Sequence record: OP114734.1
From: Escherichia phage vB_ESM-pEJ01
Reading direction: 5' to 3' (one strand)
Length of the DNA: 64,000 bases
Under the pieces are notes generated by a model. It searched no databases. It was not told the DNA's origin and was given only the letters and a program-made list of their open reading frames with translations. Positions 45,054 to 53,200 of this stretch are shown piece by piece (position 1 is the stretch's first letter; each line of letters starts with the position of its first letter). Position numbers and translations under genes: made by a program.

Positions 45054-46028
45054 TTACATCCCTAACAGAGCGTCAAGATCATCCAGATCAGAAGCGGAGG
45101 AAGTACCGCCACCCAGGTCCAGAGATGCCATCAGGTCATCAGCGGAAGAACTCGACGCTGCGATAGCTGCGGTAGAAACAGACGCGGCGATAGCTGAGGT
45201 AGTGCCAGCATCGAATGCATTCATCTGTGCGTCAAAATCGTCAAGCTGGCTGTTAATCGCTGCCGCAGCACTGGAAGCCGCCGCACCAGCTACCATAGAA
45301 ACGCCCATAGTTTTCTTAAATTTGGTTTCCAGTTCATCGAACGGTTTAAACTGGCTAGGCGCTACAATCTCACCCAGATCAACCATGTTTTCCATCAGAT
45401 ATTTCTGATATGCTTCGTCTTCAATCTTCGGAAGCTGTGATTGCTGCATGAAACGAGAATCATCATAGTTCTGGTGTTTATCAACCTTCTTAGCTTTCAG
45501 GAGGAAGTTAGCACCGGAGAACACACAAGTTACATCTACAGGAACTTCGCCCATATCGGTATTCACGTTCACCATTGCAACGATCTTATCATAAATTTTC
45601 TGACCGAAGCGGAATTTGAATACATTACCTTCATTTTCTGGTGCTTGAGGATCTTTCAGTACCAGAATATTTGCGTAGTAAGAGGCTTTACGCTTAATCA
45701 GTTGCCATTCGGTTTTATCGGTATTGTACAGGTCTTTTTCGTTAATATATTTGCACACAGGGCAAGAATCAAAATCACCGTGGGTGCTTGAGCAGTTTTC
45801 CCAATACCATTTACCATTAACTTTGAAGGAATGGTTTACCAGTTTCACAATCGGCAGACCGTCTTCTGTCTTAGACGGCAGGAAGCGAATCAGGGCTTCA
45901 CCGTTACCTGCTGCATCAGTCTTAATCTTCCACTCTTTCGGATCTTCTTTGGAGAAACCGTTGCCACCTTTCAGTGCGGCCAGTTGAGCTTGCAGTTTGG
46001 AAGAATCTTGACGACGAAACATGTTCAT
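45054..46028 (-). CDS. 32: Single-stranded DNA-binding protein gp32
   Basis: Aligns with T4 gp32 (FLPSK, zinc site CSSTHGDFDSCPVC, LYNTD); acidic C-terminal tail. Confidence 0.93.
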   Translation of the reverse strand: MNMFRRQDSSKLQAQLAALKGGNGFSKEDPKEWKIKTDAAGNGEALIRFLPSKTEDGLPIVKLVNHSFKVNGKWYWENCSSTHGDFDSCPVCKYINEKDLYNTDKTEWQLIKRKASYYANILVLKDPQAPENEGNVFKFRFGQKIYDKIVAMVNVNTDMGEVPVDVTCVFSGANFLLKAKKVDKHQNYDDSRFMQQSQLPKIEDEAYQKYLMENMVDLGEIVAPSQFKPFDELETKFKKTMGVSMVAGAAASSAAAAINSQLDDFDAQMNAFDAGTTSAIAASVSTAAIAASSSSADDLMASLDLGGGTSSASDLDDLDALLGM

Positions 46029-46088
46029 AATTATACCTCTTTATACATTAACTATTGATTAATTTACGTTTTATACTATATCAGATAC

Positions 46089-46685
46089 TTAATTGCTTGT
46101 CAATACTTTATCAATTATATCTAACAGTTTTGGCTTTCTATTTTCAAATTCTAACATCTCTTCGGGAGAAATGTCAACTACTTCTGTTTTGTTGAAAAAG
46201 TTTGGGTCTATAGCATCAGCAACAAAGTTTCTCGCAAGTGCTGCCGCTTTCTCATGAACATATATTCCCAAATATATCAACTTCTTTCTTTCGACCTGAA
46301 TATTGGCAACATATTTACCATCTCGTTTATAAAGACTAACACCGATATATTCAGACGATCGACCTTTCTGTTTACCCATATTTCTTGAGTTTTGTTGCTC
46401 GTTCGCATCTCTCAAGTTTTCAATCCGATTATCTGTTATAATTCGGTTAACATGGTCAACGTATTTTGGCATGTATCCATGATGCATAAAGAAAATTATT
46501 CTATGCTCTTTATGATGTTTACCATCGATACACACCAATCTGTATCCATGACTAGGATTAACTCCACCCGCTCTAGATCCGACTTTATGCTTTCGGTTTG
46601 TCGATATCTTGCGAATCAGCTTACCGTTATCATATTTAAAGAGTTCATGACAACGAGCATACAATTCAGGATCATATGTTTTCAC
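46089..46685 (-). mobile_element. HNH-AP2 homing endonuclease gene (198 aa)
   Basis: HNH motif VDHVNRIITDNRIENLR...QQN and AP2-like SEYIGVS...KYVANI; inserted between 32 and 59. Confidence 0.65.
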
Positions 46686-47349
46686 CTTTTAACCTCGATA
46701 TTTCTTTACACTCTTTAACTACTTTAACAAATAATGCTCTTGCTTTTGCGGCGTCAATAACAAGTAGTTTCTTGTACGCCTTCATTTTAACACTATAAGT
46801 TTGCCAAATCAAGTCTTTGGCTACCTTGTCGTGTGCGTCGATTATATTTAGAAAGCTATCTAACAACATAAACGACTCAAACGATATAATCCGATTTTGC
46901 AGTAGTTTAAAGATACCGCTAGTTTCGGTTGCGGGATTGTATGTAATTAGCTCTTTAAGAGTAACCCCGCGTTTCTCTGAGAAGTATACCAGACTTTTAA
47001 TGTCATCGTCAAATCGTGTTGCTGCATCGGTTATCTTTCCTATGTATTCCATATAAAAGCCGTATGCGTCAACATCAGTGATTTCACCTACCCATGCATC
47101 GGTATTAGCTACCAGATTGCTTAGGAATAGGAAGTATAATTCTCTTAGATTGTACTTTTCCGCTAATTTTGCGAAATAATACTTATCTCTGCGTTTATTG
47201 AATGCGGCATCAGACAACCGCATCCTCCAATTGTATTTTACGCAATCATAACGCCCGTTCATGTGAGCTTTCATCATGCAATATAACATATACACAGATT
47301 TAGCATTAATTCGCATATCTGGATCTGGAGGAAGACGGTTTCTGATCAT
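46672..47349 (-). CDS. 59: Helicase loader gp59
   Basis: Aligns with T4 gp59 (KSVYMLYCMMKAHMNGRYD, ISFESFMLLDSFLNIID). Confidence 0.9.
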   Translation of the reverse strand: MIRNRLPPDPDMRINAKSVYMLYCMMKAHMNGRYDCVKYNWRMRLSDAAFNKRRDKYYFAKLAEKYNLRELYFLFLSNLVANTDAWVGEITDVDAYGFYMEYIGKITDAATRFDDDIKSLVYFSEKRGVTLKELITYNPATETSGIFKLLQNRIISFESFMLLDSFLNIIDAHDKVAKDLIWQTYSVKMKAYKKLLVIDAAKARALFVKVVKECKEISRLKGENI

Positions 47350-47358
47350 ACATACCCC

Positions 47359-47613
47359 TTAAATATCGAGAGTGTTTGTCGGTTCGTCGATCACTCCCTT
47401 CCTGAGCGTTCTATTTACTATACATTCTTGTGTGATCTTGTCAATAATGGACACCGGAATATATTTCTGATAGTGACCATATTCGATAGAGTTTTCCTCT
47501 ACAAACTGCGTTGTCGCTTCAAGATAAGTCAATCCATCTTCAACAACCAGTTTTTCGATTGCAAGACCGTTTGCTGTTTTGTTCGCGGCTTTTACCGCAT
47601 GTTCATTAAGCAT
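47359..47613 (-). CDS. 33: Late transcription co-activator gp33
   Basis: YLEATTQFVEENSI matches T4 gp33; ATG chosen at MLNEHAV. Confidence 0.8.
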   Translation of the reverse strand: MLNEHAVKAANKTANGLAIEKLVVEDGLTYLEATTQFVEENSIEYGHYQKYIPVSIIDKITQECIVNRTLRKGVIDEPTNTLDI

Positions 47614-47881
47614 TGAACACCCGATCATAGAGTTCTACCGCTTCATCGCGTTCTGCTTCGAAGGTTTCGCGCTGTTGCTGGTGATACAGTTTAAACAGAA
47701 TACCCCACATTTTACCGTCTACGCCCAATTCTTCTTTAGCACGCTGTTTGATCTCTTTGATCTTATCGCCGTATGCTTCTTGAATGGTTTTCTGATCGCT
47801 GGCTTCTTTAATCAGTTGTGCCAGGGTATTTCCGTGCACTGCTTCGTCAAATACTACTTTTTCTTTTTTCTGTTCAGTCAT
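47606..47881 (-). CDS. dsbA: DsbA double-stranded DNA-binding late transcription protein
   Basis: 91 aa; position between 33 and rnh as in T4. Confidence 0.7.
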   Translation of the reverse strand: MTEQKKEKVVFDEAVHGNTLAQLIKEASDQKTIQEAYGDKIKEIKQRAKEELGVDGKMWGILFKLYHQQQRETFEAERDEAVELYDRVFNA

Positions 47882-47885
47882 AATA

Positions 47886-48482
47886 TTAACCCTCTTTCGT
47901 CATTAATTGAAAACCACGTTCAGCTTTTGAAATTTCGCTAGGACTTAAATCGTCACCCACATATTCTAGCATCATTTCTCGGATAATGTCAAGTGCTTTT
48001 TCATCACCTGATTTTAACTCGAACTTAAGTTCATAGTGAGCATCTCCCATGACTTCGCCGACTTTGCAATAATAGAAAGTGTCTTTGCACATTTCCACTA
48101 TAGCACCCTCAAGGTCAAGTGTCAATGACTTGCGGTATGTCATTACTTGCAATAAAGGAACGATAAGGTCGGAGTTTACGCCTAGACTATCAACATAGTG
48201 ATAGAAATCATCCATTGTTGAAAAAGTAATTTCTTCTCGGTTGAATAGTCCAGATTCACCATCACCTATTTTGACCATGATCAATGATCTATTAACGTCA
48301 AGTCGAGCATAAATTCCTTTTCGACGCAGTGCATGATCTTCGGTATCATAATAAAATTCGTGTTTTAGTGTGTTAGCATGATCTACGATATTGTACCCGT
48401 CATACATTGCTACCCACAAATCACAGATTGTTTCGACGCCAATTTGTGAGTGTGCATAGTATTTTAATTCAAGTTCTTTCAT
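47886..48482 (-). CDS. CYTH-like (triphosphate tunnel) domain protein, putative
   Basis: N-terminal ELELKY (ExExK) and C-terminal HYELKFELK pattern; inserted between dsbA and rnh. Confidence 0.35.
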   Translation of the reverse strand: MKELELKYYAHSQIGVETICDLWVAMYDGYNIVDHANTLKHEFYYDTEDHALRRKGIYARLDVNRSLIMVKIGDGESGLFNREEITFSTMDDFYHYVDSLGVNSDLIVPLLQVMTYRKSLTLDLEGAIVEMCKDTFYYCKVGEVMGDAHYELKFELKSGDEKALDIIREMMLEYVGDDLSPSEISKAERGFQLMTKEG

Positions 48483-48492
48483 ATGTCAACCC

Positions 48493-49440
48493 TTAGAACT
48501 CACCAATTTTCTGCAACATTTTAACTAACGCATTTGTTACAAAATAGTTATAAATTTTACCGCGTGGTGCTGGTTTAGATTTTTCCCATGACTCCAGAAT
48601 CTGATTCTGAATATCATCTGGGATGTAATCGAAATCAATAAGTTCGCGGTTTTCGTCAAAGCGTCGTGCTTCTTCCTCTGTCATCAAAGACTTTGGATCT
48701 TCGGCATCGAAAATTTGCTCTAACCATTTGGTCGCAATTGGTTTAGCTCGTTCCCCTTCCAGTCGTGAGATAATGAAATCACTACGGCACTTGACAGAAG
48801 CTACACCGTCTTTTGCGTCACCCTTAACACATTTTACCATAAGGTCTTTGTAAGGGCTACCATATTTGCATTTCTTCCATGCTTTCTGTACTGGCGCCCA
48901 CTGTTTCACGTTTTTGTATTTGTGCAACTGTGTGTAGTCACCATCGCCGGAGTTGATCAGCACCTGACGACCTTCTACAGAAAACTTTTTAGTTAACACA
49001 GCGATTATATCATCTGCCTCAACTTTGTCAACCTTAATAACGTGATAAGGCATGTTCTCTTTAAACTCTTCGGTGATCTTATTGATCGCGGCAAAGATCA
49101 TCTCCCAATCACGCGGATCTGCGTCTCGTTTTTCCTTACGGTTGCGTTTATAGTAAGGGGCGATATCACGTCGCCAGTAACCTTTACTTGAATCAAAAGC
49201 AAGTACCGTAATTGGGTATTGTTCTTTGAATTTTGTCATATTATAACGCATGGTGTCAAGGATAAGATGACGGATCATGCCTTCATTAATAGGATCTTCC
49301 GGTTTAAAGGTATGCGAGATAGTAGCAATCATAAGCTGCGACATATCAATCAAATGCACACCTTCCGGTAGTTTATCTTCTGGATCATCGAAGAAATCAT
49401 TAAGTGTAGCGGTAGTTTTTGTAAACGGGTTATACGTCAT
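48493..49440 (-). CDS. rnh: RNase H (5'-3' exonuclease / FEN family)
   Basis: 315 aa; acidic active-site clusters (VLAFDSS, EADDIIA, NSGDGDYTQL); synteny before gene 34. Confidence 0.88.
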   Translation of the reverse strand: MTYNPFTKTTATLNDFFDDPEDKLPEGVHLIDMSQLMIATISHTFKPEDPINEGMIRHLILDTMRYNMTKFKEQYPITVLAFDSSKGYWRRDIAPYYKRNRKEKRDADPRDWEMIFAAINKITEEFKENMPYHVIKVDKVEADDIIAVLTKKFSVEGRQVLINSGDGDYTQLHKYKNVKQWAPVQKAWKKCKYGSPYKDLMVKCVKGDAKDGVASVKCRSDFIISRLEGERAKPIATKWLEQIFDAEDPKSLMTEEEARRFDENRELIDFDYIPDDIQNQILESWEKSKPAPRGKIYNYFVTNALVKMLQKIGEF

Positions 49441-49442
49441 AA

Positions 49443-49628
49443 TTAAGTTCTCTCCACTCTCACAACAACATATTCGCCAAACGAGTTAGATACTTCACGA
49501 TCATACCCGTACTTCTCCATAACTCGCAGAATTGCATTGTTTAGTTCTGCGCGAAAATAATTATAATCCTTATCAGGGATTCTGTCAACTACCCATTTTG
49601 CACCATCAGACAAATCAAATTTAACCAT
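49443..49628 (-). CDS. Hypothetical small protein (61 aa)
   Basis: ORF coupled to rnh start. Confidence 0.45.
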   Translation of the reverse strand: MVKFDLSDGAKWVVDRIPDKDYNYFRAELNNAILRVMEKYGYDREVSNSFGEYVVVRVERT

Positions 49629-49634
49629 AATATA

Positions 49635-50216
49635 TCATCCTCTTTTTGGAAAATTTAAATAAGCATACTCGCCAACTATTTCATGTGCTGCACGGTCATA
49701 AGCCTTAGCCGCCTCAACTTCTGTCTCAAAGTATCCTAGATGTATATTCTTTCGATTGATAACAATATACGCCTTCCACGGCTTTTTCTTGCTTGGTGAT
49801 AATGATACACCTTTATATTTGCTATGGCAAGCCTTTTTCTTTGAGACGTTAAACTGATTTTGCTGTTCGGTTGCTTCTCTCATGTTTGACGGTCTATTGT
49901 TAGTTTTGTCTTGGTCTATGTGATCTATTCGTTCAACCTGAGTACCATACTCTAAAAACCAGACAACTCTATGTACAAACAGATTAAGTTTATGACCATT
50001 GTTGTAAAATGTAAAGTATAAATATCCTTCTTTATGGAGACATACCCTTACCACATCACCTTTTTTGTATATGGACCCTTCTTTTCGGAATCCAGCAGCT
50101 ACAGAATCCTTTAAATGGTATAATATTCCATCGACATGATAGAATCTACCTTTTATCGCTTTCTGTGTCTCGATATCCCAAAATTTTGTTTTTGCCACAA
50201 CAAACACCTCACACAA
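49635..50216 (-). mobile_element. HNH-AP2 homing endonuclease gene (193 aa)
   Basis: HIDQDKTNNRPSNMR...QQN (HNH) and YKGVS...WKAYI...GYFETEVEAAKAYD (AP2); inserted between rnh and 34. Confidence 0.65.
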
Positions 50217-50250
50217 TAAATAATTTCATATTATAACAGGAGACCCAATA

Positions 50251-53200
50251 ATGGCAGATTTTTCTCAACATTTCAAGGCCACCTTTGGCTTTGACGCTGG
50301 TAATGAAAAGGTCGTCAATGTAGCATACGCAGATAAAAACACATCAACGGATGCGGTCAACGTTGAATTTTTCAATTACCATAATGGTATTACTCAGTAT
50401 GACACAACTCGCGGTTATGATCAATACGGAACTACAATCTATCAAAACCGTCCGTATTATGCAAAAGAAGATATCACAAAGCCAGCAGGTGATTTTGACC
50501 CGACTAAATGGCAAGCACTGCGCACGGACCCACGTTGGGATTATGTTGCAGCAACTTCCGGCGATACTCCTTTAAAGTCTGGTGATTATATCGCAGCGGA
50601 CTGTCAGTTTGCAAACTTGACATTCTCAATGCCTACTAATCCGGCAGAGGGAGACACTATAACAGTAAAAGATATCGGTGGCAAGTGTGGTGTTAACGAA
50701 TTATCGTTCTTGAGTACAGGACATGAGTTTTACCATAACGGTAATGTGTACAACCGAAAATGGTATTGCACTACCCCGTATGCAATGAACTATTTCATCT
50801 TTGTTCGTAATCGTTGGCATGTTTATCAGACAGGAACAGAGCCACGCGGTGTGTACGCACAGCCAGCGATTGATGCTATTCAAATGCAGAATGGTGATCA
50901 GGTATTTCGTCGTAGTTCGTTGGGTAATATTACCTTAGTGCTTCCTAAGTTTGCCAACAATGGCGACATGATCCAGACTACAGACCTTGACGGATTAACC
51001 GCAACCAACCACGTTACGGTTAAAGTTCATGAGCACGCAGAAGAACAATCAATTGGCACGTCCGGTCTAAAAGAGATTATCGGTAAGCGTAGCGGTCATG
51101 GTGTATTCATCTTTGACAAGACGGAAAACTTATGGCGTTTGTGGGATGGTGATCAGTCTGTTCGTCTTAAACCGATCATCGATGACACTCGCTTGCAACC
51201 TAATAGCTATGTTGCTGTATTTGGTGATCGTGATGTTACTCTGACGCTGCCGACCAATGTCGAGCCGGGTGATCGTATTCAAGTTTCTATGCAGTATATG
51301 AACGGAAACCAGAATTGCCGTATTATCACCGCCACAGAGGATACAAAAATCCTTATGCAGAAAAACATGGTTCAGTTTCCTAAGCGTAGCGAGTACCCAT
51401 TCAATGGGACCGATACATGGACGGGAGTATCTGAATTGTCTTTCAACGCTGCAAATGATTATGTACCTTATGTGGAGTTCTCTTATTCAGAAGGTGATGA
51501 TGGTAAGAAATACTGGTTGGTGGCACATGCTCACCCGATTGTAGAACGAGTAGATCCGACTCGTAAAGATCGTGTTGGTGTAATTGCACTGGCTACCCAA
51601 ACTGAAACGAATAAAAACCATGAAGAGAATCCTAGCGACGAAGTTGCAGTAACACCAAAAATGCTGGCTAATAAAACCGCCAACGAAACTCGACGCGGTA
51701 TTGCTCGCATTGCGACTCAAGCGGAAACGCATCAAGATACTGGTTCCAACTTCCTGGATGATGTTATCGTTACGCCTAAAAAGTTAAATGACTGTGTTGC
51801 TACCGAAGCCCGTCGTGGTGTGATGGAAATTGCAACCCAGCACGAAACCAATGAAGGTTTAGACGATACCCGCGCTATTACTCCTAAGAAATTAGAAGAA
51901 CGTCGCGCTTCCGAAGATCTCGCTGGTATTGCTGAAATTGTTCAGGCTGGCGGCAGTGCTGCCGCTCGACGTGGCGAAGCTGGTACAGGGATCTATAACA
52001 TCAATGACCATGCTAAAATTGTTACGCCAAAAAACATCAACGAAGTCAAGGCGACCGAAACTTCCCGTGGTGTTGGCTATCTGGCAACTGACGCGGAAGT
52101 GCAAGGGGCTACAGAATCAACCCCGCAAGATGCTTTACTCATCACGACTCGCACGCTAACGAAACGTACTGCTACCGAATCGCGCACTGGTATCGCTGAA
52201 ATTGCAACTCAGGAAGAAACAAACTTAGGTCAAAGTGATAACCATATCATCACGCCTAAAAAGCTGCATACTCGCCGAGCAACGGAAACTTTACACGGTT
52301 TAGCAGAAATTGCAACTCAACCGGAGTTTGACGCAGGTCGTGACGATTCTCGCATTTCTACCCCATTGAAGATTAAAACCTTCTTTGAGAATGCACAGCG
52401 TTTGAAAGTAGATCCGACTCAGGGGCTTAACCTTACTGGTGATTTGTGGCAAGGTATCATGATCAGCGGTCTGGATGCAACCGAAGACACAAAAGGTGTC
52501 GCTAAAGTTGCGACTACTCAGCTTACTGACGCTGGTCAAGATGATACTACAATCATCACGCCTAAAAAGCTGCAAGGCAAGAAGGCCACCGAAGGTAAAG
52601 AAGGCATTATCCGAGTTGGTACTCAAGCCGAAACCGTGGCTGGTATTATGGACAATGTAGCAATTTCTCCGAAGAACTTCAAATATGTTGTTCAGACAGA
52701 GGATACATGGAAAGCAACCGAAGCGCGTCGTGGCTTCTTGAAAGTTGCTACTCAGGAAAACTGTTTTGTTGGTGATAATCTGCAAGGTTCTACTCAAGAA
52801 CTAGGAAACTACCAGCATGACGGAATTGCTGTTACCCCTAAAGGATTAAACTACGCACTTGCTAATTTCTTACCTAAGATGGCAACCGCTCAGAATAGTT
52901 TGAAATTAGGTAACGTAGAGGCCGCTAAATGGGCGCGTAGAGACATTGACCAGACCATAGAGAGCAATTACACGTTTAATAAAAACGTTAACGTGAAGGG
53001 CGATTTAGAGTGCTTAAAATCAGGTTCCTTTGAAACTCTGTCTGTGACTAAGAACTCGACCGATGTTCCGAGTAATGGTCATCTGGTGTTGGGTGAGCGT
53101 GGAGTTGACGGTCACACCGGAATTACTCTGCATGGCACAACCGCATCGGAAGGCATGAAAAACTCTTGGTCTATTATCGTTGGTGGTACTGGAACAGCGC

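Follow-up and report, generated by a model that had tools for sequence, protein, structure and literature searches.

The stretch of DNA analysed here (the window) comprises 64,000 nucleotides of Escherichia phage vB_ESM-pEJ01 (sequence record OP114734.1), whose genome is 166,422 bp long (PMC11767321). The window belongs to an RB49-like phage (genus Krischvirus), and the region of interest is 97% identical to G37-3, ELT4 and RB49. Between the genes rnh and dsbA, on the minus strand, it carries an open reading frame (ORF) of 198 codons from ATG to stop, and profile comparisons together with a predicted fold support the reading that this ORF encodes a stand-alone triphosphate tunnel metalloenzyme (TTM) of the CYTH superfamily, the ortholog of RB49ORF244c. 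By alignment, the gene family is a member of the TTM superfamily, and the copy in the window lacks one predicted catalytic determinant, i.e., the first Glu of the ExE motif on strand beta8 (a metal-1 ligand), in place of which Lys is encoded at codon 153. Taking the explanation as a whole, we consider it probable that the family comprises YgiF-like stand-alone TTM hydrolases with a two-metal mechanism, and that the K153 copy is dead or impaired. The family assignment is already known and adds nothing as such, since RB49ORF244c was listed as a CYTH domain (E = 0.0026) by Nolan et al. in 2006 (PMC1524935), and the RB49 record describes ORF244c as "similar to P45267, P30871, HI1598, ygiF". What is new is the private E153K substitution, a Y-x-R-x-D signature of the phage clade, and the behaviour of the gene as an allele cassette.

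The preliminary description of this ORF, made from the sequence alone, had tentatively likened its product to CYTH enzymes, and both the family and the fold evidence agree with it. The single sequence matches Pfam CYTH (PF01928) end to end, with residues 2–190 on model positions 2–178/179, at 23.2 bits, the gathering cut-off of that family being 23.2 bits. A single-sequence phmmer search against the PDB was of no help, with TriTu and SusD at E > 0.2. However, a family profile built from an alignment of 15 diverse homologues matched the TTM domain of E. coli YgiF (5A60) in the PDB over residues 2–195 with E = 8.9e-13, and BH2851 with E = 0.009. AlphaFold2, run on the homologue alignment, gave a model with a predicted local distance difference test score (pLDDT) of 92.1 and a predicted template modelling score (pTM) of 0.85, showing long beta-strands and a C-terminal helix at residues 186–195. 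This model agrees with a tunnel formed by an antiparallel beta-barrel of eight strands and plugged by a C-terminal helix, and its top PDB matches are all TTMs. In the Foldseek search against the PDB, YgiF 5A60 came first (E = 2.9e-12, query TM-score (TMq) 0.79, 22% identity), followed by HpAC1, BH2851, AtTTM3, SaTTM, thiamine triphosphatases and CyaB, with the viral capping triphosphatases far lower; nearly all TTMs of known structure were among the matches. Thus, both a CYTH profile match and a beta-barrel tunnel were found, the two features whose absence had been named in advance as grounds for abandoning the assignment.

A HMMER scan of 1.84 billion representatives recovered 3,779 relatives, 451 of them at E ≤ 1e-10, which are a mixture of ~200-aa stand-alone proteins and ~500-aa proteins of CYTH-CHAD length. 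The phage protein has no CHAD domain: it stops at 198 aa, 3 residues past the plug helix, and Pfam yields CYTH alone. The names given by NCBI and UniProt to members of its clusters include "CYTH domain-containing protein" and "inorganic triphosphatase", and the PHROG match (14893) is to a family of "unknown function". A recent capture of the host ygiF was considered and rejected, the identity being 29% and stand-alone ~190-aa proteins scoring 116 bits vs. 52 bits for YgiF. Other phage-encoded CYTH proteins, i.e., the jumbo-phage CYTH/MazG triphosphatases and the Aeromonas phage proteins Aeh1ORF004c, 65.2 and D3, differ from the present one in fold similarity (TMq 0.30–0.51) and genomic context, and they fall outside the YxRxD clade. 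Iyer et al. (2021) speculated that phage CYTH and MazG triphosphatases might degrade unmodified nucleoside triphosphates (NTPs). A literature search on CYTH/TTM in connection with phage, defence and anti-defence turned up no experiments on a CYTH protein of any phage.

The features of the coding region on which the argument rests are the following.

47886..48482, minus strand: coding sequence of the stand-alone 198-aa CYTH/TTM protein, RB49ORF244c ortholog, equal to UYE95265.1 (ORF, Pfam, family profile and fold)
48462..48476, minus strand: codons 3–7, E-L-E-L-K, the ExExK signature on strand beta1, in which E3/E5 correspond to the YgiF metal-2 ligands E4/E6 (alignment)
48297..48311, minus strand: codons 58–62, Y-A-R-L-D, in which R60 corresponds to the catalytic YgiF R56 and Y58/D62 are specific to the phage lineage (alignment)
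48012..48038, minus strand: codons 149–157, HYELKFELK, strand beta8 with the ExE metal motif, in which E155 corresponds to YgiF E162 (metal 2) (alignment)
48024..48026, minus strand: codon 153, AAG, encoding Lys where the universal metal-1 glutamate stands (YgiF E160), GAG or GAA in relatives
47913..47939, minus strand: codons 182–190, SEISKAERG, where the C-terminal plug helix begins, K186 being invariant in 148/148 distant relatives (alignment and model)

Residues were mapped through the alignment of the family profile with 5A60, in which the PDB chain index is the YgiF number plus 2. The catalytic residues of YgiF are E4/E6 (metal 2), R56 (catalytic), K69, E160 (metal 1) and E162 (metal 2) (PMC4641920), which map to E3/E5, R60, K71, position 153 and E155 of the phage protein, respectively; the mapping of K69 to K71 is one register off in the HMM alignment. 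The ExExK start that the preliminary description had read in this 198-aa protein is indeed present (M-K-E-L-E-L-K-Y); it is invariant in 44 homologue clusters as E3-L-E5-L-K7 and aligns with YgiF E4/E6/K8. In total, twelve residues are invariant across these clusters (E3, E5, K7, R60, R82, E84, R117, D134, E151, E155, K157 and K186), and nearly all of them are also invariant or nearly so in the 148 nearest representatives. Among the basic residues of the tunnel, R60, R82 and R117 are family-invariant and are Arg in 147–148 of the 148 relatives, and K7 and K71 are family-conserved. The second Glu of the ExE motif, the metal-2 ligand E155, is present and invariant in all 44 + 148 sequences. YgiF (5A60/5A61) and the phage protein thus have in common the ExExK signature, the catalytic Arg, R82/E84, the ExE strand and an S-K-x-x-R-G plug helix. 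We note three differences between them. First, YgiF has a CHAD domain and 433 aa, against 198 aa in the phage protein. Second, YgiF has G and R where the phage protein has Y58 and D62. Third, YgiF has E160, of which the window copy has no equivalent.

This third difference is private to the window copy. K153 is a single transition away from a Glu codon (T48026 on the plus strand), and position 153 is Glu in 44/44 homologue clusters, in 13/13 further members of the same 90% cluster, and in the five nearest genomes (OZ035808, ELT4, Whisky, RB49 and G2494), whose CYTH genes, in the closest cases, are only 5–6 nt away from that of the window. Among the distant representatives, the equivalent position is Glu in 147 of 148, the remaining one having Gln. 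The preliminary description had pointed to HYELKFELK as a CYTH-like pattern; the pattern is there, at residues 149–157, but its typical form is HYELEFELK in every relative, and it had been overlooked that the K, a private substitution, sits where the universally conserved metal-1 glutamate stands. An in-silico K153E reversion raises the Pfam CYTH score from 23.2 to 28.5 bits (+5.3). RB49ORF244c (AAL87844.1) is the same gene, with 97.5% protein identity, the same rnh-dsbA slot and the same length, differing in that the window copy carries the private E153K and S75G. UYE95265.1, from vB_ESM-pEJ01 itself, is the sole exact copy of the 198-aa protein in public data. In IMG/VR, an exact 23-mer search returned 0 matches for the K-codon version and 1 for the E-codon version, which has little bearing on the frequency of K153 given the few Krischvirus contigs there, and a profile-guided search for the locus returned only 3 close relatives.

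What such a change may do to the enzyme can be judged from mutagenesis of homologues. YgiF E160 has been described as "invariant in all TTM proteins", the E160A mutant of YgiF is impaired, and the corresponding AtTTM3 mutants E169A/D show strongly lowered activity (PMC4641920). By analogy, the K153 copy of vB_ESM-pEJ01 is most likely inactive or strongly impaired. In the ortholog of vB_EcoM_G2494 (locus L009; MK327935.1, 537–1132), one nucleotide is deleted at codon 59 and the annotation splits the gene into two coding sequences; either this copy is damaged, the second such case among the isolates, or the sequence was misread. Because this frameshift exists, and because vB_ESM-pEJ01, with its K153, was reported to be an efficient, broad-host lytic phage (PMC11767321), CYTH activity appears to be dispensable in culture.

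As to the chemistry, the preliminary description had allowed for either hydrolysis of triphosphates or synthesis of cyclic nucleotides; hydrolysis is favoured, whereas cyclisation is disfavoured by published sequence criteria. Class IV adenylate cyclases are distinguished by an HFxxxxExExK extension, a small residue at the first Arg of the xRxR strand, and Ala in place of the second ExE Glu (Vogt et al. 2021, PMC8233210). First, only M-K precedes ExExK in the phage protein, and the HF motif occurs in 0 of the 148 nearest relatives. Second, the first Arg of the xRxR strand is kept as the invariant R60. Third, the second Glu of the beta8 ExE is kept as the invariant E155. CyaB (2FJT/3N10), which shares the superfamily fold and from which some phage records take their "adenylate cyclase" label, has the HF motif, the small residue and the Ala, whereas the phage protein has no HF, and has Arg and Glu. 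Since all three determinants fail, the cyclase label is very probably wrong. Orthologs bearing it are found in MK573636 (PHB13), OR525698 (KMB43) and OR352938 (AV108), and these labels are likely an annotation error inherited from the old name of ygiF. Though it long carried the name of a cyclase in error, YgiF is a specific inorganic triphosphatase (PPPase) with no cyclase activity and no hydrolysis of ATP, GTP, pyrophosphate (PPi) or polyphosphate (PMC3440374). The residues kept in the phage family point to the same side, i.e., the family is most likely a two-metal triphosphate phosphohydrolase and not a nucleotide cyclase.

In the proposed mechanism, a triphosphate–metal complex would be bound at the centre of the eight-stranded beta-barrel, one end of which would be shut by the C-terminal plug helix, and the terminal phosphate would be hydrolysed by the two-metal TTM mechanism. 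Metal 1 would sit on E153 and metal 2 on E3/E5/E155, the latter activating the water; R60 would act on the beta-gamma bridge, and the phosphates would be bound by K7, K71, R82 and R117. With E153K, the vB_ESM-pEJ01 copy would be catalytically dead or strongly impaired, a loss that the phage seems to tolerate in culture.

The substrate of the intact family members would by default be inorganic triphosphate (PPPi), by homology. However, Y58 and D62 suggest a small organic triphosphate instead. On the strand of the catalytic Arg, the phage clade reads Y58-A-R60-L-D62, whereas its cellular relatives read small-x-R-x-R: of the 148 nearest representatives, 132 have A/S/G/T and 3 have Y at position 58, and 142 have R at position 62. 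The sole D and one of the two N at position 62 belong to the phage-like P0045 and P0053. In thiamine triphosphatase (ThTPase), the corresponding motif is W/YxRxR, in which the aromatic residue stacks on the thiazole ring and the second Arg is kept (PMC8233210). The mammalian 25-kDa enzyme (5A64/3BHD) resembles the phage protein in its fold and in the aromatic residue two positions before the catalytic Arg, and it differs in its second Arg (Asp in the phage), in showing no family-profile similarity, and in a TMq of only 0.56–0.64. The phage protein thus has the aromatic residue and the first Arg of W/YxRxR, but Asp for the second Arg, and no family-profile match to ThTPase. Because the aromatic Y58 is combined with D62 in place of the second Arg, the phage clade is neither a textbook PPPase nor a ThTPase. 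That Y58/D62 hint at a nucleotide- or thiamine-like substrate is speculation from the motif.

Several observations weigh against a YgiF-like hydrolase family with a disabled copy in vB_ESM-pEJ01. The single-sequence Pfam CYTH score only equals the cut-off, and neither NCBIfam nor PADLOC gave any match to the CYTH protein even at E ≤ 10. The literature search turned up no enzyme assay for any member of the phage clade. The inward orientation of residue 153 comes from the YgiF alignment and the strand register, not from model coordinates, and Lys153 could bind phosphate directly, preserving binding or some activity. D62 stands for an Arg kept in 142/148 relatives, and substrate binding may therefore differ unpredictably from that in YgiF. 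Finally, a plain PPPase role seems redundant in a phage, given the host pyrophosphatase (PPase), as the E. coli enzyme already provides abundant PPPase activity (PMC3440374).

Besides K153 and the tunnel signature, the gene is unusual in the way it varies among close relatives. The variable part was delimited by comparison with six other loci (L002, L010, L011, L012, L016 and L017).

48045..48455, minus strand: variable allele cassette, codons ~10–146, with 42–68% DNA identity to Skers (DNA comparison)

Outside the cassette, the flanks are 95–100% identical to Skers at the DNA level and the last 150 nt of the gene 97–98%, and the drop is abrupt. Against Skers and contigs of the P0042 type, the RNase H, DsbA, gp33 and gp59 proteins are 97–100% identical, vs. 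58% for the CYTH protein and only 45–46% for its residues 1–146. Phi1, Brandy and GEC-3S show the same pattern in a milder form. At least four CYTH allele classes exist, with mutual identities of 40–47%. The synonymous divergence (dS) of the cassette is 0.37–0.38 against Phi1 and Brandy and saturated against Skers and P0042, compared with 0.13–0.18 for rnh, and the ratio of nonsynonymous to synonymous divergence (dN/dS, or omega) is 0.31–0.34 in the cassette, 0.04–0.10 in rnh and 0–0.07 in dsbA. The variable part has 18 columns that are invariant, and 10 of these are universal tunnel residues.

The cassette boundaries fall on ExExK and on the ExExE strand, the CYTH motifs with the highest conservation of all, and these offer homology for exchange. 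A special functional constraint on the C-terminal 50 residues was considered as the cause of their conservation and rejected, the conservation being at the DNA level (97–98%, with flank-like dS) and lost in more distant phages, in which the C-terminal part is 46–54% identical vs. 37–44% for the N-terminal part. Because the C-terminal part is not better conserved in those phages, the conserved 3' end is taken to be a recombination boundary. We read the pattern as one of old, catalytically intact alleles shuffled among near-identical backbones, going by the sequence comparisons. Such shuffling is compatible with host-driven diversification, and also with neutral mosaicism near homing endonucleases. 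A mosaic patch is also seen in the C-terminal part of rnh (~48630–48690), which is 77–87% identical to Skers and Brandy, the other parts of rnh being 95–100% identical.

The gene itself is old. The order rnh-CYTH-dsbA-gp33 is kept in metagenomic relatives down to 36–46% identity (P0043, P0045), and the CYTH gene has therefore long been part of the lineage and was not inserted recently. As far as sequenced isolates go, the CYTH clade is restricted to Krischvirus, and tblastn with the divergent P0045 and P0053 again returned only Krischvirus. In the phage collection, the gene was found in 58/58 Krischvirus records; it is also found in 44 protein clusters, and its dN/dS is 0.14–0.34. For these reasons the ORF is a genuine gene rather than a fortuitous reading frame.

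The allele pattern bears most directly on a different account, which we regard as unlikely, namely that the protein is a counter-defence factor or eraser of a host signal that hydrolyses a host-made triphosphorylated small molecule, its surface diversifying under host pressure. A chain-terminating or signalling NTP, thiamine or adenosine-thiamine triphosphate, and pppGpp would be examples of such a substrate. Put in full, with the same doubtful standing, the protein would be an early enzyme and no housekeeping PPPase; it would break down an organic triphosphate of host origin, whether a signal of immunity or starvation or a toxic analogue of a nucleotide, and its alleles would be held by host-driven balancing selection. 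This account would fit the tunnel remodelled by the lineage, with Y58 at the position of the ThTPase stacking aromatic and D62 for Arg, as well as the four or more allele classes that are ~45% identical beside neighbours with 97–100% identical proteins and that keep the catalytic residues. It would also fit the cassette dS of 0.37 to saturation vs. 0.13–0.18 in the flanks, the omega of 0.31–0.34 vs. 0–0.10, the redundancy of a plain PPPase with the host PPase, and the dispensability of the gene in culture. However, the overall omega is below 1, and the mosaicism may be no more than the outcome of recombination starting from the two conserved motifs, close to homing endonucleases. Moreover, the gene lies in a replication/late-transcription cluster and not in a known anti-defence island, and the comparison with known defence and anti-defence families gave neither a PADLOC match (E ≤ 10) nor a matching publication in the literature search. 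If the account were true, vB_ESM-pEJ01 (E153K) and G2494 (frameshift) would be natural loss-of-function variants, with a narrower host range on strains making the target molecule.

Two further accounts are much less probable. In one, which we judge very improbable, the K153 protein is a non-catalytic triphosphate binder (sponge) or performs an altered, metal-1-independent chemistry; Lys at the metal-1 site could touch the phosphate directly, the other tunnel residues are all intact, and the ORF is full-length in a fit phage. However, K153 occurs in one genome among >200 sequences, the signature of a recent and probably neutral or deleterious mutation rather than of adaptation, and the frameshift in another isolate suggests that loss is tolerated. 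In the other, to which we attach similarly little weight, the protein is an RNA 5'-triphosphatase of the Cet1/LEF-4 type that acts on transcript or primer 5' ends alongside RNase H. The fold is common to the viral capping triphosphatases (vaccinia, mimivirus and giant-virus mRNA 5'-phosphatases), and the gene adjoins rnh, which encodes an RNA primer remover. However, the capping enzymes give the weakest matches listed (TMq 0.42–0.46, 9–10% identity), the family has none of their extra domains, and the nearest relatives are plugged-tunnel small-molecule enzymes; the characterised bacterial CYTH proteins (YgiF, NeuTTM and CthTTM) use PPPi or NTPs and not RNA (PMC3440374). Least credible of all, and scarcely worth entertaining, is a class IV (CyaB-type) adenylate cyclase that reprogrammes the host by making cAMP or some other cyclic nucleotide: although three orthologs are named accordingly and the CyaB structures 2FJT, 3N0Z and 3N10 are significant fold matches, these reach a TMq of 0.48–0.52, far weaker than the 0.79 of YgiF, itself once mislabelled, and no class IV determinant is present.

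Returning to the YgiF-like hydrolase family, its gene is closely packed between its neighbours. The CYTH ORF starts 10 nt past the rnh stop and ends 4 nt ahead of the dsbA start. Upstream lies rnh, encoding a T4-type RNase H of 315 aa (PF09293, E = 3e-39; PF02739), and downstream dsbA, encoding 91 aa (PF11126, E = 5e-22), past which the order is gp33 (PF16805), gp59, an HNH-AP2 homing endonuclease and gp32. The preliminary description rightly stated that T4 has no such gene in this place: in NC_000866, dsbA ends 8 nt from rnh, and the gap holds no annotated gene. The candidate expression signals are the following.

48490..48494, minus strand: AAGGG Shine-Dalgarno sequence (ribosome-binding site), overlapping the rnh stop codon, 7 nt upstream of the ATG (sequence)
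49004..49031, minus strand: candidate sigma70-type promoter, TTGACA-16-TATAAT, 12/12 and TG-extended, inside rnh, ~520 nt upstream of the CYTH start (consensus match)
49588..49560, minus strand: candidate sigma70-type promoter, 12/12, upstream of the CYTH gene (consensus match)

On the minus strand from 45900 to 50300, 26 sigma70-like sites were observed vs. 14.2 +/- 3.7 expected; the TTGACA hexamer is perfect in eight of them, and coding sequence holds several, for example those at 48125..48097 and at 47992..47963 in the CYTH gene, the second of which is upstream of dsbA. Matches of 11/12 occur inside the CYTH gene. A search near the CYTH gene on the minus strand found no T4-type late promoter (TATAAATA). 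The matches to the promoter consensus make early co-transcription of the CYTH gene with rnh likely.

ORFs for homing endonucleases with HNH and AP2 domains flank the replication cluster at 46089–46685 and 49635–50216, both on the minus strand, and such elements could promote the local gene conversion at the CYTH gene. The second of these, between a 61-aa ORF and gene 34, is present only in some relatives, with a megablast coverage of 100% in 7 records and 98% in all the others. The 61-aa ORF (49443–49628, minus strand) lies directly upstream of rnh and is conserved, being 92–98% identical in Skers, Phi1 and contigs of the P0042 type; it has no Pfam family and no T4 counterpart between rnh and gene 34.

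For annotation, the "adenylate cyclase" labels in phage genomes, very probably wrong as they are, are better not propagated. For the biology of these phages, ancient intact alleles in near-identical genomes resemble host-interaction loci, which makes the CYTH ORF a candidate for studies of phage–host conflict. A metal-ligand point mutant, a frameshift isolate and dozens of intact alleles together form a natural experiment, whose members can be compared on diverse hosts, and such a comparison of natural variants could show for what purpose phages require an enzyme of the triphosphate tunnel type.

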